From contig OY762428.1 in the NCBI GenBank assembly GCA_963665665.1, positions 4,256,001 to 4,320,000 of the forward strand: a DNA stretch of 64,000 bases, given 5' to 3'. Shown piece after piece: positions 50,647 through 64,000 of the stretch (positions are counted from its first letter, which is position 1; each line of letters begins with the position of its first letter). A program made the position numbers and the translations under genes. Under the pieces are notes generated by a model that was not told the DNA's origin, did no database searches, and worked only from the letters and a program-made list of their open reading frames with translations. Source of the stretch: Candidatus Kapaibacterium sp. Lineage in GTDB: Bacteria > Bacteroidota > Ignavibacteria > Kapaibacteriales > UBA2268.

Positions 50647-53265
50647 ATGAAGAAGATTCTTATCATTGCCATTATAATATTATTAAAATCAACAGGCCAC
50701 GCTCAGGACGACTATCAGAAAGGTGAATCGCCGTATTTCATTATTCGGGGAGGTGAAAATTCGATGCCCCTGCTGGACACCAGGGCTGATGTCAATATTG
50801 CAGCTACTATTGCCGACGTGAAAATCACCCAGGTTTACACTAACAAGGGTAAAAAACCGATAGAGGCAATTTACGTTTTCCCGGCATCAACCGGTGCTGC
50901 CATCCACGGGTTGACCATGACAATAAACGAAAGAGTAGTAAAAGCAAAAATTTCGAAAAAGGAAGATGCAAGAAAAACTTACGAGAAAGCCAAAAGTGAA
51001 GGAAAAAGAGCTTCCCTGCTGGAACAGAAAAGGCCAAACGTTTTTAAAATGAATATTGCGAATATTATGCCGGCTGATACTATTATCGTTGAATTAGAAT
51101 ATACCGAAAAGCTGCTGCCGGACGACGGGTTGTTCGAGTTCATGCTTCCGACTGTTGTCGGGCCGAGATTCAAACCCAAATCACCTGAAGGTGAAGACGA
51201 TTTCCCGGATATTAAATATCATTACGGAGAATCAAGTTATGACTTTGATATTAATATAAACCTGATGTCGGGTGTTCCGGTTCATGAAATGGAATGCCCA
51301 ACCCACAAGCTGGATATGACACAGCATTCTGACAGGCATTTGGAGCTATCTCTGGCAGAAAATCAGGAAAAGACTGGCAACAGGGATTTCGTTTTACGTT
51401 ATAGGCTTACCGGAGGACATATAGAATCAGGTTTGCTCCTTTCAGAAGGAGAAGTTGAGAATTTTTTTATGCTTACCCTCCAGCCTCCTGCAAGAGTTGG
51501 CGATGCCGAAATTATACCAAGAGAATATATTTTCGTTATGGATGTTTCCTATTCTATGGCGGGAGATCCCATAGAAATATCAAAAGAATTAATGTTCGAC
51601 TTATTGGACAGGCTGGGACCCAATGATATGTTCAATATTCAGTATTTCGCCTCAACTTCTTATATGATGTCTGAAACTTCACTTCCCGTTACTCCGGAAA
51701 ATATTGAATTTGCCAAAAAAGATATTTCTGAAAATTACGGCGGCGGCGGAACAAACCTTTATCATGCTTTGACCAAATCACTTGCAATCGATAAAAAAAC
51801 CGGTTACGCCAGATCATATATCATTGTTACGGACGGATACATATTAGTTGACGAAAAGGTCGTTGACCTGATCAGAGAAAACCTTAACAATGCAAACTTT
51901 TTTGCATTTGGAATAGGAAGCAGCGTGAACCGCTATCTGATAGAAGCTATTGCAAAATGCGGTTATGGCGAACCATTCGTGGTTCTTGATATGAGCGAAG
52001 CTGAAGATATTGCCGTAAAATTCAGTAAATATATAGAAGATCCTGTTCTTTCAGATATTGAAATAGATTTCGACGGACTGGATGTTTATGACGTGGAACC
52101 GGAAAATATTCCTGATGTATTTGGTACTCGTCCAATCAATATTGTTGGAAAATGGCGGGGTATTCCTGAAGGGGAAATTGAAGTATCCGGCCAGAGTTCT
52201 AAGGGAAAACTCAAAGTATCAATTCCACTTAAAGTATTCGTAAAAAAAGATACAAGTCAGGCTTTGAAGTACCTTTGGGCACGAGACAGGATTGAAGAAC
52301 TTGAACTTTTAAAAAAGGGACAGATAGCTTATACCGAAAAAGAAATAACCGACCTGGGGCTTAAATACGGATTGATGACCGAATATACTTCATTCGTGGC
52401 CGTAGATAATCAGATAGCAAATAAGAAAGGCAATCCGACAGTTGTTGAGCAGGACTTGCCCTTGCCGGAAAATGTTAGTTTTGGCAGGACTTCCTATGCT
52501 TCGTCCTATAGCGGAGGATATTCCGGTTACGGCGGAGGTGATGACGCTGTTGATAATCCTCTTATGCCAATTGCATATCGTAAACCTATCTACGTCGGAC
52601 CTGTTTTCGGGGTACACAGAACATTTATGAGTATTGAATCAGATTATGATGAAAATATTCTTAATAGTTTCAAAGCTGAAAATCTAAGCGGGAATGGCTG
52701 GAACATTGGACTTAGCTTCGAATACCTGCTTGGAAATATTAAAAATTCCAATTCGAGTATTATCGGAATTGTAAAATATGAGAGTATGAATGGAAAGGAT
52801 TATCATAATATCAATCCGGAGGATCTTGTTTTAAATATGCCGCAAATATCAGAACTTCCCGAATACGAAAGAATTGTTGATTTGCAGTTATTAGATATTA
52901 CCCTGCTTTACAAATACAACATGTTCAACAGCAACTTTGGAATAGCTGCAGGGCCTTCATTCAGTTTGATACTAGGAACAAATGACTATAGGGCAATAAA
53001 TTTGTTTGATGAAAATATATCATTCCCCAATGTTGACGGTTATAAACTTGACAATAATGGCCAAACTCTGATTTTACGTGATGGTGATGTTCCAGATGTC
53101 AATGCGTTCAGGATAGCCCTGAACTTCAGACTTCAATATGAAATACTTCTGGGCCGGATGTATATTGTTCCTTACGCCGGTTATCAGCTCGGATTAACTT
53201 CCCTGAGTCCTGCTATAAAACTAAATATGATTCACATAGGCACTGAAATCAGATTTGCCATCTGA
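50647..53265 (+). CDS. Secreted VIT + vWA protein with C-terminal outer-membrane beta-barrel
   Basis: VIT (ADVKITQVY.N...IEAIYVFP, ASLLEQ.RPNVF), MIDAS DVSYS/TDG, TSFVAVD, Gly/Tyr/Ser linker, then about 230 aa of barrel strands ending EIRFAI. Confidence 0.85.
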   Translation: MKKILIIAIIILLKSTGHAQDDYQKGESPYFIIRGGENSMPLLDTRADVNIAATIADVKITQVYTNKGKKPIEAIYVFPASTGAAIHGLTMTINERVVKAKISKKEDARKTYEKAKSEGKRASLLEQKRPNVFKMNIANIMPADTIIVELEYTEKLLPDDGLFEFMLPTVVGPRFKPKSPEGEDDFPDIKYHYGESSYDFDININLMSGVPVHEMECPTHKLDMTQHSDRHLELSLAENQEKTGNRDFVLRYRLTGGHIESGLLLSEGEVENFFMLTLQPPARVGDAEIIPREYIFVMDVSYSMAGDPIEISKELMFDLLDRLGPNDMFNIQYFASTSYMMSETSLPVTPENIEFAKKDISENYGGGGTNLYHALTKSLAIDKKTGYARSYIIVTDGYILVDEKVVDLIRENLNNANFFAFGIGSSVNRYLIEAIAKCGYGEPFVVLDMSEAEDIAVKFSKYIEDPVLSDIEIDFDGLDVYDVEPENIPDVFGTRPINIVGKWRGIPEGEIEVSGQSSKGKLKVSIPLKVFVKKDTSQALKYLWARDRIEELELLKKGQIAYTEKEITDLGLKYGLMTEYTSFVAVDNQIANKKGNPTVVEQDLPLPENVSFGRTSYASSYSGGYSGYGGGDDAVDNPLMPIAYRKPIYVGPVFGVHRTFMSIESDYDENILNSFKAENLSGNGWNIGLSFEYLLGNIKNSNSSIIGIVKYESMNGKDYHNINPEDLVLNMPQISELPEYERIVDLQLLDITLLYKYNMFNSNFGIAAGPSFSLILGTNDYRAINLFDENISFPNVDGYKLDNNGQTLILRDGDVPDVNAFRIALNFRLQYEILLGRMYIVPYAGYQLGLTSLSPAIKLNMIHIGTEIRFAI

Positions 53266-53808: not shown

Positions 53809-54309
53809 ATGACTAAACATTCTAAGAAAATTGATGTACAAGGAACCAATATCAATATATTCGAAGATAATGTTGGCGATTTCCTTTCACTGACAGATAT
53901 GCTAAAAGCCAAGGATGGAGATTTCTTTATATCCGATTGGCTTAGGAACAGGAATACTGTGGAATTTCTCGGAATATGGGAAAAGGTGCATAATCCGGAT
54001 TTTAATTATGGCGAATTCGCCATAATTAGAAGTCAGGCAGGCCTGAATAGTTATAAGATCAGCGTAAAAAAATGGGTAAGAAAAACCAGTGCTGTCGGAT
54101 TGAGGTCAAAAGCCGGCAGGTACTGCGGAACTTATGTACACAAGGATATTGCATTTGTATTTGGTTATGCTGGAAATGCAGTTTTAATATTATATGGAGA
54201 TGAAATTGAAAGCGGTATAGATGATGCCGTTGATAGCATTTGGGAAAATATGTATCCGATGTTACAGGATATGGCTAATCCAAATACATATATAAACTTA
54301 AGCAGGTAA
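53809..54309 (+). pseudogene. Truncated KilA-N domain fused in frame to an unrelated ~48-aa tail
   Basis: DFLSLTDM...WLRNRNTVEFLG.WE..NP.F...GRY.GTY.HKDIAF is KilA-N; the expected continuation (EF..WISP.F) is replaced by VFGYAGNAVLILYG... Confidence 0.75.
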
Positions 54310-56954: not shown

Positions 56955-57512
56955 GTGAAATTTGTTTTTCAACAAAATAATTTTTGGAAAAGAATCTCCT
57001 TTGCCGGGAATACCGACTTCTATGATTGGCATTATAAATCATCTGCCGATCCTCTTGCGGAATTATTTACATTCAATTCTCCATATTCCTATGCTTTTAA
57101 TAACCCCGTGAACTGGTCTGATCCGTCAGGACTGGCTCCGGAGAAAGCCGGGCATAAGGATAAAATTCTGGAGATGGAAGAAGCTATGATTGTGGATGGA
57201 AAACGTACATTTAGAAATATTGATGTTACTGCTACTCGAATATATGAAGGAGCCAATATAAGATGTTGGGCAGGAGATATAAGACAGGAAGGACTTGGAA
57301 TATTATTAGAAATTCAAACTGATAAGGAAAATATTTCTTACAAACTTGGGCAAACTGCCGCACAAATACGTGCTAATCTGGCTCTTGATAAAGCAGGAAA
57401 TACAGCCTTAATTCGACTGGAAGCAGGATATGATTCTCCAGGTCCAAATCCAAACTCTGAAATCAAAGGGAACAGTAATGGTGCTGGATATGTTACTGTT
57501 CCAAGTCTGTAG
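56955..57512 (+). pseudogene. Second RHS core tip, truncated before its toxin domain
   Basis: ADPLAE...SPYSYAFNNPVNWSDPSGL, then the duplicated linker; breaks at ~57490. Confidence 0.8.
57048..57489 (+). repeat. ~440-bp direct repeat, copy 2
   Basis: Matches 54934-55375. Confidence 0.92.
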
Positions 57513-57859
57513 CGGTCTGAGAGGAAATCATACACTTCCTGACCTCTCGCCAGGTCAAAAGCGCTGTTGTATAGGATCACATCTCCGATAGCCCCGTTGA
57601 AAGTACATGAGTAAGTTTCGCCTGTGTTGTAGTCGTGGAAGCATGTTCTTGCAGCCCCGCCGGTTTCGGTAAGGCCCTGCACGAAGTTCTGCACAATGTT
57701 TGCCGGAACCAGTTCCTGCTTTTTTCGTTCCATTCTGGAAATCTGACTTTTACTGCTCATGTTAAGAAGCCGTGCAGCATTTTCCTGGCTAAGCCCGAAA
57801 TATTCCCTCAGTCGTCGGAATTCTTCTCCTGTCAGTGGAGGTAGGTTGTCGTGAAACAT
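57338..57859 (-). CDS. XRE-type HTH protein with chimeric C-terminus
   Basis: LTGEEFRRLREYFGLSQENAARLL..SSKSQISRMER HTH, then a LamG-like fragment, then read-through into the antisense RHS repeat. Confidence 0.65.
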   Translation of the reverse strand: MFHDNLPPLTGEEFRRLREYFGLSQENAARLLNMSSKSQISRMERKKQELVPANIVQNFVQGLTETGGAARTCFHDYNTGETYSCTFNGAIGDVILYNSAFDLARGQEVYDFLSDRYRLGTVTYPAPLLFPLISEFGFGPGESYPASSRIKAVFPALSRARLARICAAVCPSL

Positions 57860-58509: not shown

Positions 58510-58777
58510 AATTGTTTAACCTTGTTTATTGATGTAAAATACTGTATTACCCATATAAACCAATGGCTTATAATTGTAATATACGAAAAATATTTCAATA
58601 TATTTCAATGTATATGAAAATTTATTTTAAGATTTGTATATTCCTCCCCTTGCCTTTCTCCTGAAAATTTGCAATATTAAGAATTGAATGCTCGCGGGGG
58701 AGTATTCCGGCAATGGCAGAGAGAAGGGCAGGAAAAAATTTAATCAAAGCGGTAGCCGAAAGTTGCTTTTGGTTTCT

Positions 58778-58805
58778 AAAAAAAGCTGCCCCGCTTTGGG
58801 ACAGC
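58778..58805 (-). terminator. Intrinsic terminator after IPTL-CTERM gene
   Basis: Minus strand gctgtccc-aaagc-ggggcagc followed by T7. Confidence 0.8.
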
Positions 58806-58830
58806 ATTTATTCTAAATTGAATTATGTCA

Positions 58831-59370
58831 TCAAACTAATTTCGTTGCCTTGTAAGTACCGAAAATTACAAGCAGGGAACCGAGAAGGATTGCAGCCCAC
58901 TCACCGAGTGTCGGGATGAGCGGCGGGGGAGGCGCTGAGAAGAAGCCCCATACTGAGAACTCATTAACATTTCTCACTCTAATTAATAATTTATCGCCTT
59001 CATCGGTTACATTTATATTTTCAGTATTGATCTTGTGAAGAATCCCTTCATGGATACGGTAAAGTGGCAGATTGCTAAGGTCTGCACCTGATTTCAACGA
59101 GCTTATCGGCAGTTGGAATGTTATCGTAGCATTTAGGTTCGAAGGTGCTTCGATCTGCCAGAGAATACCGGCAATATTTATATCCCGATCATCTTCTATT
59201 AGATTTATCCGGTATTCGGACTGCCTTTCGGATTCTACAATCAGACTATAAGTTCGGCCATTCAATTGCCTGCTGTATTCCTGAGCGGGACGTCCACCCT
59301 TTATCGCTTCAGCCAAGGACAGACTTTGGGATGCGACCAGTACAATTATTATTAATAATAGTTTTTTCAT
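58831..59370 (-). CDS. Small secreted protein with IPTL-CTERM sorting domain
   Basis: SD gaggt, signal peptide, one beta domain, PPPP linker, IPTLGEWAAILLGSLL TM and basic tail. Confidence 0.88.
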   Translation of the reverse strand: MKKLLLIIIVLVASQSLSLAEAIKGGRPAQEYSRQLNGRTYSLIVESERQSEYRINLIEDDRDINIAGILWQIEAPSNLNATITFQLPISSLKSGADLSNLPLYRIHEGILHKINTENINVTDEGDKLLIRVRNVNEFSVWGFFSAPPPPLIPTLGEWAAILLGSLLVIFGTYKATKLV

Positions 59371-59403
59371 TTATTACCTCAATTATAATTTCAAATTTAT
59401 AGA

Positions 59404-62400
59404 TTAAAAACTGTTTACGCCGGTAATGGTGATTATATAATACTCAGGAGATGTATCAGCATCAACACTGAACTTGTATTGATCCCATTCTACTTCAGGA
59501 TCGTCCCATCTCAACATAAAGTTTTCATTAGGAACCGACTGAACTTGCGTTTTCGGCAGGTAGAATTTTATAGTAGCGTTTAGTCCGTCGGGACCTGATA
59601 ATTCCCAAAGAGATTCGGTAATTGCCTTTTCCAAAGTAAGTGGTAAAGTGGCAAATACCCTGGCTGCCAAAGTTTGTTGTGTTCCTCCTGACCAGGATAT
59701 TTGAATGAAAAAAGGGTTCCCTTTCACTCCGACAGGAAAGAAACAGGGGCTAGCATGACCCTGGAATTTGAGCATGCCTTCACCGCGGGTACTAATTATT
59801 CCGCTGCCGTTAATTGTACCAATAAGTACCAGGTCTTCATCACCTATGGTGATATTATAATTATTAAGATTCAGATTTTCACTTGTTGTTACTCCGTTGG
59901 TATGAATCGTACCACCGTTGTTGATAACAGCCAAAGCATCTGTCAGGTTGTCGAAGCAATCAACAAGCCATGTATGGCCGTCGTTGCCGCATGATGAACA
60001 ATAATTTTCGCTGACCCATAACTCGCCTCTTTTCTCGGGGGTTATTATCAGTGAGGGAACTGTGCCGTCAGTTTTGTAATCGATGTTTGATCCTGAATTT
60101 GTGTATGGGAATATTTTGAAATAATATGTCTGTCCCACTGTCAGGTTGATCAACTGTTGCGATTGAATTCCCTGGGCAACGTTAAAATTCAGGCCGTTTG
60201 TTGTTATCGGCGTTCTGTCAGCCGGATCAGTAATATCAGCAAGGCTTACAGTACTTCCGCGAATCAGGTAGCCATGAGGCAGGGTTCCGCCCGTAGCATC
60301 AGTCCAGGTTAGATTAAAATTTTTATAATTAACAAATTCAGAGTTGAAATTTGATACATGGTATGAAGGTTCTGGGTATATTGTCACTCCCTGGGCAGTT
60401 TCAGCCCCGCTTGTTTGGTAATTGTAAGTTTCGCTGTCAGAATTATTCCATGTGTATGGAATAAGCATATAATTGTATGTTGTATTTCCTGACAGGCCGT
60501 TATCAGTATAAGTAGTAGCTCCCTCGGCTATTGTTGAGGAAACCAGAGTAGTATTAGCTCCTGCAGCAGGAGCAAGTCCGTCTGATGCGGCAAATACCGG
60601 TATATTGGGGCTTGTTGCTCTGATCAATACATATCCTTTTGCAGTTGCTCCGCTAAGAGGCCACGCCGGAGCTGTCCAGCTCATTGATACCGATGAAGCA
60701 GTTGCTGCGTACTGGTCAAGGCCTGTTGTTGCAGGCGGTTCTGATGAGTAGGTTCTGAAATCAATTGTACTGCCGTAGCTGTTTCCTGCCGAGTTGTGGC
60801 CGTAAGCCCTGGCATTGTACCTTGTTTCAGCAGTCAGCGCTGTCAGGTTTCTTGTGAAAGATCCTGTTCCAAAGTCTCCAGTTTCATCTACCTTAGTTAC
60901 ATTGGCTCCACCAATTATCTTGTCAGTATTAGTATATGGATAATAAATAATGCCTCTCTCTGAACAATTTTCTCCTCCTGTAGCTGTAATATTGCCATTT
61001 CCAGTAGCAGATGTTGTTCCTATGGAACTAACTGCCTGCGTTGTTACTGTGGGAATTGTCGGATCTGTTCCGCTTGTCCATTCATAAGCCCCCATGTCTA
61101 TTGTTTTATTCTGGATACGGTCTTCGCCTCGCATATCCTTTAATACAACAACGTTAGGAGCTGCGACATAAGCATTATTCCCTGTATTGACACAGGGAGA
61201 AGAGCCATATAAAGTGAAATCATTATTTGCCGGATCAACGAATTTTGGATTCTCTGTAATATTATTGTTAGTAGCTGTGAAAGTACCGTTATTAAAAATA
61301 TCATTATTTTCATTGGAATAACAGGAATAATCTAATGTTGTTGTTCCATCAAATATATACATCTGATTGCCGGAAATTGATGCACTGTTTCCCCATATAA
61401 TTGAGTTTTTTATCGTAGGAGTTGATGAACCATCATTGAAAATTCCACCGCCTCTAAATGATGCACTATTATAACTTATTGTGCAATTGGTGAGTTCCGG
61501 TGATGATGCTAAATTAAAAATACCACCGCCGTCAACAGCGCTATTATTACTGATTTTACAATTAATGAGCGATGGTGACGATGAATAGTTATACAATCCG
61601 CCACCATCAGATGATCCTCCACCCTCTAATGATGCACTATTGTTACTTATCGTGCAATTGGTGAGCGATGGTGATGATGAATAGTTATACATTCCACCAC
61701 CATTAGAATGTGGTGAAACACCATCAGCTTTCCCACCCGTAATAGTAAATCCATCGAGAACTGCGGAACCGGTAAGGTTTAACCCGGAAGGATGATAAAA
61801 GACGTGATAGCAGTTATCTGAATTATCACCAATATTTCCAATATCCCCACTCAATATAGTTTCGTTTGCTTCAAAATCCCTATCATCAAGATCGAAAGTT
61901 GCTGTATCTTCGTTACCTTCAAAGCCACCGTATATAGCCACTCCGTCTTTCATCTGGAAAGTTTTATACCTATCTCCAGTTCCACCGACTTCTGTTTCTG
62001 GCTTATATGTTCCGGCGGCGACCCAAATCTCGTCTCCGGAAGTCGAAGCTTCGAGCGCGTCCTGAAGATCTTCGTACGCGTTGGTCCAGGAAAACCCGGA
62101 ATTAGCTCCGGATGCGTCGGCGTCTACGTAAATTATTCCTCTGGCGACTCCGCCTTCGTATGAGCCCATATCAATCGTTCCGCCTTGAATCCTTGCGTTT
62201 CCCGCAATGTCGTAAGTTTCGGAATTGGCCGAATTATCGCCGGAATTGAGACAGGGTGAACCGTTGTATAATCTGAAATCGCCGCTTGTCGTAGGCGCGT
62301 CCGCCGGGTCGACAGGATCGACAAAAAAAGGATTTTGATCAATATTGTCGGTATATGTTATCGAATTTCCGCCGTCGTCGCCGAAGGCCGCCCTTCCTCC

Positions 62401-64000
62401 CTGGATATCGCAATAGCTAAATATAGGCGAGGAAGAAGTATTGTAAACCTGGTTTCCTGAAACGCTTGCGGAATTGTTCCATATAACGCTGTTCTTAATT
62501 GTAGGCGAGCAGTTATCTATTATTAATCCGCCGCCGTCGGCGGCTCTATTACCGGAGAAAGTGCAGTTTACTACATTAGAATTGTTCTCGCATATACGCA
62601 AGGCTCCGCCTTTCTCATCGGCAGCGTTCCCGGAGAAAACGCAATTAGTAAATGTCCCCGGATTGCCGTAAATACTTAAAGCTCCGCCGTTCTTAGCGCT
62701 ATTATCTGCGAAGTAACTGTTTGTTATTGCAGGCGTACAATAAATCACATACATGCCTCCGCCATAATCAGAAGCCGAGTTCCCTGAAATGTGACAGTTT
62801 TCAATTACAGGCGAATTTCCTCTAAAAATATATACTCCTCCGCCAAATTTTTCGTAGCCATTGCTACCGGTTGCGCTCCCGTCTTTGATCGAAAATCCGT
62901 CCAGGCGCGTATCAGAATTGGTCTGGTACATAAAAACGACATGATAAGCATTCTCGGAATTATCTCCTCCGGAATCGTCGTCTTGGTTCAAATCTCCGCT
63001 AAGAATAGTTTCGTTGGCTTCTCCGGCACCGTAATTCGCTCTTTGCGAGATTGCCGTTTCAGTTCCCACAAACCCGCCGTATACTTTAACGCCGGAGGGA
63101 ATTCTGAAGCTTTCATTTCTGGCGGTCGTCGAAGTCGTTCCGTTACTGATGGTCCAGCCTTGAGAGGGATGGTAAGTTCCCGAGGCTACCCAAATTTCGT
63201 CGCCGTCGGCGGCAATACCCAAGGCGGAATTTAAATTTGTTAACGCGTCGGCCCAGGAAGAGCCGTCGTTTGCGCCGCTTGCGTCCGCGTCGACGTAAAT
63301 TGTTCCTCTGGATACTCCCGATTCATAGGATCCCATATCCGGGTTCCCAATTCTGGAATCTCCTTCAATATCATCGGAAGGAGCGCCCGTCGAAGTTCCC
63401 GCGTTAACGCAGGGCGACCAGTTTAATATTCTGAAACATCCTGCGGTTGAAGGAGCCGAAGCGGGATCGAGAGGAAAGGCGAAAAACGGATCGGAATCGA
63501 TATTATTCGTATAAGTTATTGTATTTCCGCCGCCGTCGCCAAAGGCCGCTTGTCCTCCTTGAATATCGCAGTAATTGAAAGTAGGAGAAGAGTTGGAGTT
63601 ATATACGTTATTCCCGTCGCTGCCCGCAGAATTTCCCCAGATTATACAATTTTTGAAAACCGGCGAACAGTTCCATGAGTTTTGAACGCCGCCTCCGTTA
63701 AATTGGGCCCTGTTGCCTGATATTGTAGTATTAATTACGTTGGGAGACGACCATGTATCATTCATAATTCCCGATCCGTAGTAAGAATAATTTCCGCTTA
63801 TTGCGCAATTAGTTATATCGGGAGAGCAATAGGAGGAGTTATAAATCCCGGCATAATAATTCGCGTCGTTTCCTTTAATGACGCAATATGAAATAGTCGG
63901 CGAAGAGTTATCGTTGTTGTATATACCCGCCGCTCTGTAAGCATCGTTCTCTTTGATGAGACAATTTTTGATTACAGGAGAGCTATTATCCCTGTTGTAA
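59404..64000 (-). CDS. Giant surface protein: tandem parallel beta-helix (Pmp/choice-of-anchor Q-like) modules, FN3-like domains, C-terminal beta domain; 5' end beyond window
   Basis: Frame is open to the window end. Repeats IYVDADASGAN.G.SW..A...L..AL.....GDEIWVA.GTY, GGG.Y, SPC.N.G...D..G..RI...DMG.YE; PTVTT.AVSSI FN3-like; ends ITGVNSF. Confidence 0.9.
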   Translation of the reverse strand, partial: YNRDNSSPVIKNCLIKENDAYRAAGIYNNDNSSPTISYCVIKGNDANYYAGIYNSSYCSPDITNCAISGNYSYYGSGIMNDTWSSPNVINTTISGNRAQFNGGGVQNSWNCSPVFKNCIIWGNSAGSDGNNVYNSNSSPTFNYCDIQGGQAAFGDGGGNTITYTNNIDSDPFFAFPLDPASAPSTAGCFRILNWSPCVNAGTSTGAPSDDIEGDSRIGNPDMGSYESGVSRGTIYVDADASGANDGSSWADALTNLNSALGIAADGDEIWVASGTYHPSQGWTISNGTTSTTARNESFRIPSGVKVYGGFVGTETAISQRANYGAGEANETILSGDLNQDDDSGGDNSENAYHVVFMYQTNSDTRLDGFSIKDGSATGSNGYEKFGGGVYIFRGNSPVIENCHISGNSASDYGGGMYVIYCTPAITNSYFADNSAKNGGALSIYGNPGTFTNCVFSGNAADEKGGALRICENNSNVVNCTFSGNRAADGGGLIIDNCSPTIKNSVIWNNSASVSGNQVYNTSSSPIFSYCDIQGGRAAFGDDGGNSITYTDNIDQNPFFVDPVDPADAPTTSGDFRLYNGSPCLNSGDNSANSETYDIAGNARIQGGTIDMGSYEGGVARGIIYVDADASGANSGFSWTNAYEDLQDALEASTSGDEIWVAAGTYKPETEVGGTGDRYKTFQMKDGVAIYGGFEGNEDTATFDLDDRDFEANETILSGDIGNIGDNSDNCYHVFYHPSGLNLTGSAVLDGFTITGGKADGVSPHSNGGGMYNYSSSPSLTNCTISNNSASLEGGGSSDGGGLYNYSSSPSLINCKISNNSAVDGGGIFNLASSPELTNCTISYNSASFRGGGIFNDGSSTPTIKNSIIWGNSASISGNQMYIFDGTTTLDYSCYSNENNDIFNNGTFTATNNNITENPKFVDPANNDFTLYGSSPCVNTGNNAYVAAPNVVVLKDMRGEDRIQNKTIDMGAYEWTSGTDPTIPTVTTQAVSSIGTTSATGNGNITATGGENCSERGIIYYPYTNTDKIIGGANVTKVDETGDFGTGSFTRNLTALTAETRYNARAYGHNSAGNSYGSTIDFRTYSSEPPATTGLDQYAATASSVSMSWTAPAWPLSGATAKGYVLIRATSPNIPVFAASDGLAPAAGANTTLVSSTIAEGATTYTDNGLSGNTTYNYMLIPYTWNNSDSETYNYQTSGAETAQGVTIYPEPSYHVSNFNSEFVNYKNFNLTWTDATGGTLPHGYLIRGSTVSLADITDPADRTPITTNGLNFNVAQGIQSQQLINLTVGQTYYFKIFPYTNSGSNIDYKTDGTVPSLIITPEKRGELWVSENYCSSCGNDGHTWLVDCFDNLTDALAVINNGGTIHTNGVTTSENLNLNNYNITIGDEDLVLIGTINGSGIISTRGEGMLKFQGHASPCFFPVGVKGNPFFIQISWSGGTQQTLAARVFATLPLTLEKAITESLWELSGPDGLNATIKFYLPKTQVQSVPNENFMLRWDDPEVEWDQYKFSVDADTSPEYYIITITGVNSF

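Follow-up and report, generated by a model that had tools for sequence, protein, structure and literature searches.

An anchorless giant adhesin-like protein and its small IPTL-CTERM neighbour in Candidatus Kapaibacterium: a possible variant of a two-gene surface-anchoring cassette

The stretch of DNA considered here (the window) comprises 64,000 nucleotides of Candidatus Kapaibacterium sp. (contig OY762428.1 of assembly GCA_963665665.1, positions 4,256,001 to 4,320,000), and on its minus strand lies the 3' part of a gene for a very large secreted, adhesin-like protein that is followed directly by a small gene whose product carries an IPTL-CTERM sorting signal (Table 1). The source genome (G000) is a single contig of 5.46 Mb with 38.6% G+C, and the big gene starts beyond the window. 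An initial annotation, made from the letters of the window, proposed that the small protein holds or releases the big one in trans, either by donating a terminal beta-strand or by pairing of homologous domains. The analysis reported here found that an anchorless protein with this ending, followed at once by a small IPTL-CTERM protein, recurs in the family to which the organism belongs, and it points to a two-gene surface-anchoring cassette of which the window's pair may be a variant.

Table 1. Positions of the two genes and of their parts in the window
Feature	Position	Strand	Description
Big gene, 3' part	59404..63999	-	5'-open reading frame, 1531 codons in the window plus stop (59404-59406); product secreted, adhesin-like, without anchor
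Candidate acceptor copy of an unnamed beta-sandwich domain	59407..59757	-	Last 117 residues of the big protein, ending at a conserved Phe, without final strand; from hhalign, AF2 models and homologues
Intergenic gap	59371..59403	-	33 nt; four in-frame stops; GAGG at 59377-59380, 6 nt before the ATG of the small gene
Small gene	58831..59370	-	179 aa: signal peptide (about residues 1-22), complete domain, last strand, PPPP linker, IPTL-CTERM anchor
Small-protein domain homologous to the big protein's last domain	58957..59280	-	Residues 31-138, through the shared Phe (F138); from hhalign
Candidate donor strand S-V-W-G-F-F	58939..58956	-	Small-protein residues 139-144, the final strand absent from the big protein; AF2 strand 140-144; motif matches the mature N-terminus of the relatives' partners
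IPTL-CTERM sorting signal	58834..58920	-	Small-protein residues 151-179: L-I-P-T-L-G-E-W, hydrophobic helix, K..K; TIGR04174; AF2 helix 155-177
Terminator-like hairpin and T run	58805..58785	-	8 pairs, 6 of them G-C; 3' of the small gene

In the complete genome the big open reading frame (ORF) runs to 2098 aa from an ATG at MKNLF, or to 2101 aa from an ATG three codons upstream. Its product is built of repeated right-handed beta-helix and choice-of-anchor-Q units together with FN3-type domains (Beta_helix, 76.9 bits; choice_anch_Q, NF041518, in three stretches with 84.5 bits, cut-off 25). The C-terminus reads ..YYIITITGVNSF-TAA, so that the chain ends at Phe and stop, and scans with Pfam and NCBIfam found no match to an IPTL or a Por_Secre_tail sorting tail in the protein. 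The gap that follows holds no anchor remnant in any frame, and no terminator-like site was found inside it. Two statements of the initial annotation are thereby upheld, namely that the protein lacks an anchor or a type IX secretion system (T9SS) tail and that no shifted anchor is hidden in the gap. In another public assembly the big protein (P0004) has 1725 aa rather than 2098, with 100% identity over the queried last 219 residues, and the count of its repeats of ~385 aa, each of beta-helix and choice-of-anchor-Q type, either differs or was collapsed between the two assemblies.

The small gene has, as had been claimed, a Shine-Dalgarno sequence of its own (GAGG), a signal peptide and a terminator-like hairpin; the signal peptide was read by eye from an N-terminal hydrophobic leader that ends in AEA, and the promoter-like matches near the gene are consensus matches only. 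The tail of the small protein consists of L-I-P-T-L-G-E-W, then AAILLGSLLVIFGTY, then K-A-T-K-L-V and the stop. Its assignment to IPTL-CTERM, also made in the initial annotation, is borne out by TIGR04174 of NCBIfam (23.3 bits, above the cut-off of 20.5), while PF18203 of Pfam gave 18.1 bits, below its cut-off of 20.8. Contigs from a second sample cover positions 58750-60750 with 13 substitutions and no indels relative to the window, and since they span the region without an indel neither the stop after Phe nor the small ORF is an assembly slip. All 13 substitutions fall within 58819-59317, ten of them in the small gene (5 synonymous, 5 nonsynonymous) and none in the last 1347 nt of the big gene. 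This clustering, a reading of 13 differences over 2 kb, may mean that the small gene evolves faster or was exchanged.

The last domain of the big protein and the only domain of the small one are homologous, as the initial annotation had it. In a BLASTP comparison of the big protein's end with the small protein the similarity is weak (25 aa, 48% identity, E 2e-5). When the small protein and a relative of similar build, P0031, were compared by hhalign with 17 strand-less domains, the probability was 99.0% (E 4.2e-18, 113 columns), small-protein residues 31-138 aligning to the 117 C-terminal residues of the big protein, with the shared Phe as the final position on both sides. AlphaFold2 (AF2) models give a similar picture. 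The small protein, modelled from a 2-row alignment, is predicted to be a beta-sandwich, with a mean predicted local distance difference test score (pLDDT) of 73 and values of 80-92 over the domain, in which the turn N-E-F-S leads from a strand at 127-135 to a distinct final strand, V-W-G-F-F, at 140-144. In the model of the C-terminal 140 residues of the big protein (17 rows, mean pLDDT 72) the last strand lies at 129-137 (YYIITITGV) and is followed by N-S-F and the stop. At the level of models it is thus supported that the last domain of the big protein is without its final strand. Residues 105-115 of this segment have a pLDDT below 50, which may reflect the missing neighbour strand or merely the shallow alignment. 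No Pfam or NCBIfam family was found on the end-domain when the big, small and related proteins were scanned, and it has no sequence relative among solved structures.

In the source genome the end-domain occurs in eight ORFs. Seven of these run past the Phe as F-S-x-[WF], followed by a short linker and a hydrophobic anchor that is mostly of the IPTL type, and the big protein alone stops at Phe. Taken with the transposase gene nearby, the seven paralogues would suit a simple truncation, the outcome that the initial annotation had set against its own proposal, in which a recent nonsense mutation or rearrangement cut the adhesin from its own anchor. A profile search of 1.84 billion representative proteins argues otherwise. 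It returned 189 proteins at E <= 1e-3, and the best 150 of the 189 were sorted by what lies beyond the copy of the domain nearest the C-terminus: more than 140 residues in 79, 71-140 residues in 17 (often with a T9SS tail), a short tail with a membrane helix in 21 and another short tail in 15. The chain ends at the domain in the remaining 18, of which 15 end exactly at ..[VI][ND].F. Because these 15 of the 150 representatives share their last residue with 21 of 27 anchorless relatives from the family (see below), the big protein's stop at Phe is a conserved natural terminus and not a loss. The four in-frame stops of a gap without anchor remnant and the identical end in the second sample also speak against truncation, which is considered very improbable.

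The single-chain forms of the domain continue after the Phe as S-x-W-T-[LA]-[GA], with 125 motif instances in a count that required Ser after Phe; Gly takes the place of Ser in about four true copies of the domain. At the position before F, 50 of these 125 instances have S, 22 have A, 18 have G and only 3 have H. The form F-S-x-W-G-[ILF]-F occurs in just three of them, the window's small protein, P0026 and P0031, and each falls into the 'LW.IE.P' branch to which the strand-less proteins belong. P0031 has 190 aa, is 34% identical to the small protein and shares its build, which from sequence comparison indicates that this architecture is kept elsewhere; scans of genome and metagenome contigs gave no genomic context for it. 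Among 5.8 billion proteins nothing close to the small protein or to the end of the big one was found apart from the proteins themselves and P0004. Elsewhere in the source genome a 3797-aa ORF (G000:C1:1092305-1103698, minus strand) holds ..VSGVDHLQTAWGIFSG.. in mid-protein, and this may be a variant end of the same domain in which L-Q-T-A replaces F-S-x.

Relatives of the organism show how far the ending and the neighbouring gene recur. A query alignment gave 39 matches among 130 genomes of the family, and 29 hits that reach the end of the alignment were examined; these comprise the big protein of the window, a single relative whose chain carries an anchor of its own and 27 relatives without one. 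The anchorless relatives end at the same F (or Y) in 21 cases and have 4-9 further residues in the other six. Fifteen of the 27 genes are followed after 8-33 nt by a partner gene of 152-162 codons on the same strand, whose product of ~155 aa consists of a signal peptide, an N-terminal x-W-G-L-F, one FN3-like domain and an IPTL-CTERM tail. Two further anchorless genes lie at contig ends and are followed there by the first 41 profile positions of the partner gene, so that a partner is adjacent in 17 of the 27, in 14 genomes and six genera besides that of the window. Several of the relatives have a terminator-like hairpin (read by eye) after the partner gene. When the survey was made from the partner's side, with one genome per species and 71 loci, all 12 partner genes of 152-162 codons followed a strand-less gene, at 8-29 nt, and the longer IPTL proteins with the same FN3-like domain did not stand behind strand-less genes; the counts from the two sides cover the same organisms and are not independent. 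Outside the family, 254 genomes of the order and 401 sampled genomes of the phylum yielded no member of the strand-less subfamily, and no single chain combining end-domain, FN3-like domain and IPTL tail was present among the ORFs of loci L062-L164.

The pattern suggested in the initial annotation, a protein that ends at F with an IPTL partner downstream, thus recurs. What is conserved in the pairing is the adjacency, and the identity of the partner differs from what had been supposed. The relatives' partner domain is FN3-like and is not homologous to the last domain of the adhesin, its candidate donor being an N-terminal extension, and therefore the pairing of homologous domains is not a general rule. 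The idea that the window's small protein is a chimera of the FN3-like partner and the end-domain was dropped, as hhalign aligned it to the partner over only 21 columns at a probability of 53%.

Some further arrangements in the family concern small IPTL proteins or strand-less ones. In one genus (g9; L032, L035, L036, L037 and L038) a third gene overlaps the stop codon of the partner gene (ATGA) and encodes a secreted protein, of at least 374 aa in L012. At L065, L066, L082, L084, L086 and L110, IPTL proteins of 190-210 aa with the same FN3-like domain as the partners lie 15-32 nt behind genes for other secreted proteins that have no end-domain, and the family may more generally place small IPTL proteins downstream as partners. 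The small strand-less proteins P0027, P0032, P0034, P0103 and P0108 have a conserved module of ~55 residues after the signal peptide (Q-Y-x-L-x-x-S-x-F-x-G-G-G .. G-Q-P .. G-F), and the same N-terminal module is found in a second class of small IPTL proteins, of 193-194 aa (L082, L084, L086, L090) and in many other ORFs of the family.

The N-terminal segment of the relatives' partners is well conserved, G and F being invariant in x-[WYMI]-G-[LV]-F-[DEN], and it lies right after the end of an A-x-A-type leader, 7-8 residues before the FN3-like domain. A complex was predicted with ESMFold2 for the pair of one relative, and not for that of the window, from the last 140 residues of the adhesin (30-row alignment) and residues 21-128 of the partner (10-row alignment). 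Its ipSAE was 0.79, 0.70 and 0.75 in three runs (median 0.75), with 0.00 for the best of three controls; 116 out of 157 solved complexes attain the pass mark, against 2 among 215 mismatched pairs, and this calibration holds only roughly for a prediction made with its own alignments. The three runs agree in at least 93% of contacts and the pLDDT of the partner is at least 91. On the partner side the interface is formed by residues 21-31 together with 51, 53-54, 69 and 116-123, and the contacts of lowest error all involve W22-F25, the W-G-L-F segment, which touch acceptor residues 62-66 and 72-75 (F-W-D-V, the 'LW.I' motif), 105-108 (L-R-F-F, the 'L.R' strand), 132, 134 and the final Phe, 140. 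The PDB contains no sequence relative of either chain, so a remembered complex is an improbable source of the passing score. In the cassette of the relatives the donor segment thus probably docks as modelled.

For the window's own pair the case is more finely balanced. The reading preferred here, which is given about even weight, is that the window holds a variant of a two-gene surface-anchoring cassette recurring in the Kapabacteria-type family and that the big protein is tethered by the small one; that the two proteins of the window do bind each other is itself put at about an even chance. The first gene of such a cassette would supply a Sec-exported adhesin-like protein whose last beta-sandwich, stopping at the Phe before its final strand, would serve as acceptor. 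The second would supply a small protein, held by its IPTL-CTERM membrane or sorting anchor, that bears the missing W-G-(L/F)-F strand and would serve as donor. Strand complementation would then join the anchorless adhesin non-covalently to the anchored partner, and the adhesin would share the sorting and the location of that partner. In the window the strand that would be donated comes after the domain copy of the small protein itself, so a strand swap would be needed and the small protein would be acceptor and donor at once, like an anchored pilin.

Strand donation in the window is favoured by the conserved slot, the conserved groove and the lack of another donor in the genome. The small gene occupies the position of the partner gene, with a 33-nt gap, no terminator between the genes and a terminator after them. 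The alignment shows that the big protein retains W, L-R-W, I..I and F, the residues lining the groove of the modelled complex. The protein also resembles relatives' proteins of 1433-1441 aa that have an FN3-like partner, at least in its last 210 residues and in its domain make-up (P0017). Motif scans of the whole genome found W-G-F-F beside an end-domain and an anchor in the small protein only, and no FN3-like partner is present elsewhere in the source genome. A DNA pattern search for the N-terminal G-L-F-D-G donor in G000, G005 and G024 gave only unrelated matches, and motif scans of G000 gave none.

A number of observations weigh against a tether in the window. The small protein is without the partners' N-terminal donor, and its strand stands at the F-S-V-W spacing canonical for single chains and is folded by AF2 onto its own domain; because of this spacing and the AF2 monomer, a closed monomer is favoured on this point, and the small protein may be a self-sufficient domain. 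Of the alternatives named in the initial annotation, strand donation is supported by the relative's predicted complex, with W-G-L-F as main contact, while pairing of homologous domains does not generalise and the window's strand is modelled in cis. The models agree with the annotation in making V-W-G-F-F a separate last strand before which the big protein ends. An adjacent partner is absent in 10 of the 27 anchorless relatives (two with only 328 and 609 nt of downstream sequence), and in G024, a 100% complete genome with two strand-less genes, a search at E <= 1e-5 turned up no homologue of the partner. Neither the 254 genomes of the order nor the scans of genome and metagenome contigs yielded a second small protein of the window's type, so the form with a homologous partner is without replicated genomic context. 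To these must be added that the alignments behind the models are shallow (2, 17, 30 and 10 rows), that the calibration of the complex score is rough and that the cleavage sites of the partners' signal peptides were read by eye.

Several of these points fit the alternative that the two proteins do not bind, the big protein being released or held in some other way and the small protein being an independent, self-anchored paralogue that sits in the partner's slot or has replaced the partner there. Besides the strand in cis, the missing partners and the lack of a second example of the window's type, it agrees with the fact that seven of the eight domain copies of the genome are ordinary single-chain anchored forms and with the position of the locus among mobile-element genes. 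It accounts less readily for the tight, terminator-less spacing of 33 nt, which is that of the conserved cassette, for the retention in the big protein of the residues that contact the donor in the modelled pair, for the encoding next door of the genome's sole anchor-adjacent W-G-F-F strand and for the intact small ORF in the second sample. Absence of binding is regarded as somewhat unlikely, and tethering by the small protein is retained as the preferred reading.

Completion of an incomplete beta-sandwich by the strand of another polypeptide is well known from chaperone-usher pili, where it is termed donor-strand complementation or exchange. The proposed cassette shares with them the completion of a fold by a strand from a second polypeptide; it differs in that no periplasmic chaperone, usher or polymer was seen here, the flanks of the relatives' genes having had no family search, and in that the partner is anchored to the membrane by a sorting signal. 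A small cell-anchored protein that holds large secreted proteins through a dedicated C-terminal module is also found in the cohesin-dockerin scaffoldins of cellulosomes, and there two complete folded modules dock in a calcium-dependent manner, with no fold completed by a strand.

The closest known system is the WxL/Elr pilus of Enterococcus faecalis. A preprint by Sleutel et al. (bioRxiv 10.64898/2026.10.17.759780) describes an adhesin, ElrA, that ends in a WxL acceptor domain lacking the last Ig-like strand, and a small LPXTG protein, ElrB, whose N-terminus is the predicted donor strand at the base. The same source includes a beta-helix class among the WxL payloads, mentions one adhesin that both accepts and donates and reports the system as confined to Bacillota (bioRxiv 10.64898/2026.10.17.759780). 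In both systems an adhesin ends in a strand-less domain that would act as acceptor and a small, C-terminally sorted protein is the putative donor, and the window's small protein, if acceptor as well as donor, would resemble some WxL subunits. The two are, however, unrelated in sequence, since Pfam scans of the big, small and related proteins gave no WxL match. The lineage here is Bacteroidota-related and T9SS-bearing, the anchor is IPTL-CTERM rather than LPXTG with sortase, and the cassette has two genes, with no gene for a chaperone (DUF916) or a pilin seen, again with no family search of the relatives' flanks. In the window, moreover, the donor is C-terminal to the partner's own acceptor domain. 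By analogy, the cassette would work like the WxL/Elr system without being a member of it.

The WxL comparison also suggests a third explanation, in which the partner is a transient helper that caps the open domain in the periplasm, carries its cargo along the IPTL-CTERM route in the manner of a piggy-back or a chaperone, and then lets go. The adjacency of the genes and the predicted docking are as expected for such a helper, and in the preprint a membrane-anchored protein of the WxL/Elr system is described as a donor-strand chaperone (bioRxiv 10.64898/2026.10.17.759780). A paper on Methylomirabilis places the IPTL-CTERM signal on a surface-layer (S-layer) protein, so that proteins with this signal can reach the outermost layer (PMC8671808). 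Adjacency and docking fit a stable complex equally well, however, and no second donor that would replace the partner was found in the source genome; a transient role is held to be quite unlikely. IPTL-CTERM itself (TIGR04174/PF18203) is a family defined by its tail only; the small protein and the relatives' partners conform to it, with the three-part tail at their very C-terminal end. No sorting enzyme or cargo-holding role is described for IPTL-CTERM in the literature found on the signal.

Should the tethering reading be correct, an IPTL-anchored mini-protein that completes an anchorless adhesin would give the IPTL-CTERM signal a concrete job and would account for giant surface proteins of this lineage that have no anchors. 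It would also extend the completion of folds by donated strands, so far a mechanism of chaperone-usher pili and, very recently, of WxL pili of Bacillota, to a Bacteroidota-related lineage and in a minimal two-gene form. A short donor (W-G-L-F) with an acceptor of ~120 residues could be reused as a natural split-domain tag.

A different kind of precedent is offered by domains that cut themselves. In PIDD, Nup98 and GAIN domains the chain is broken directly before the last strand or strands of a beta-sandwich and the halves stay joined non-covalently. The single-chain forms described above read F-S and the split forms end at that F, which is a likeness to these domains; the break arises there by autoproteolysis of one chain, whereas here it arises from the use of two genes, and the end-domain is without a conserved His before F, as the initial annotation had noted of the catalytic His. 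For FIIND (ZU5-UPA) published work describes self-cutting at F|S after ZU5 with the products remaining non-covalently joined, and gives the mutants F1212A/S1213A and S297A (NLRP1 and CARD8; PMC7483925). By VIA-align the model of the small protein matches ZU5 of ankyrin-B (6m3q_E, Z 8.1, root mean square deviation 3.6, 113 aligned), CARD8 (7jkq_B, 7.6), the GAIN domain of BAI3 (4dlo_B, 7.5), 3ud1_A (7.4) and NLRP1 (7crv_C, 7.1), and the model of the big protein matches ZU5/FIIND/GAIN families at Z 5.4-3.6 and Nup145N/Nup98 at ~4.0-3.6, with GH98 sandwiches ranking higher at Z 6.5; beta-sandwiches of glycoside hydrolases are interspersed in both lists, and the scores lie within the range that chance can give. 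Foldseek returned nothing from the PDB at E <= 1e-3. In the ESM Atlas ZU5, at 0.82, is the closest cluster with a name, a match that counts only as a lead, and the nearest feature clusters are unnamed small anchored proteins. The hint at Nup98 and PIDD in the initial annotation is therefore echoed by these fold matches, at scores that chance could produce, and kinship of the end-domain with ZU5/FIIND/GAIN is an interesting lead from models, not established.

If that lead and the cassette are taken jointly, the end-domain could be a bacterial counterpart of ZU5/FIIND/GAIN. Among T9SS and IPTL surface proteins single-chain copies are widespread, and on this view they would undergo self-cleavage at F|S and remain joined through the last strand, and the Kapabacteria cassette would be the same module split over two genes. 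The small protein, with groove and strand, would then build a short anchored chain that ends in the adhesin, and shear or proteolysis could release the adhesin, as in the SEA domain of mucins and the GAIN domain of adhesion G-protein-coupled receptors. This extension is unlikely.

The pair lies in a region with mobile-element genes. A DDE transposase (PF13701, 150 bits) is encoded directly upstream of the big gene (genome 4321833-4323038, minus strand; L001:9833-11038), and downstream of the pair are genes for proteins with KilA-N (window 53809-54309, plus strand) and HTH_31 (57338-57859, minus strand). A protein of 872 aa with VIT and von Willebrand A domains is encoded at 50647-53265 of the window on the plus strand. 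One other IPTL-CTERM protein of the source genome is noted here for its content: an ORF of 157 codons (G000:C1:3450703-3451176, plus strand) encodes a signal-peptide-like leader, a ubiquitin-like domain that starts MQIFVKTLTGKTITL.. and an IPTL-CTERM tail, and its product, judging by these parts, would be a secreted and anchored homologue of ubiquitin.

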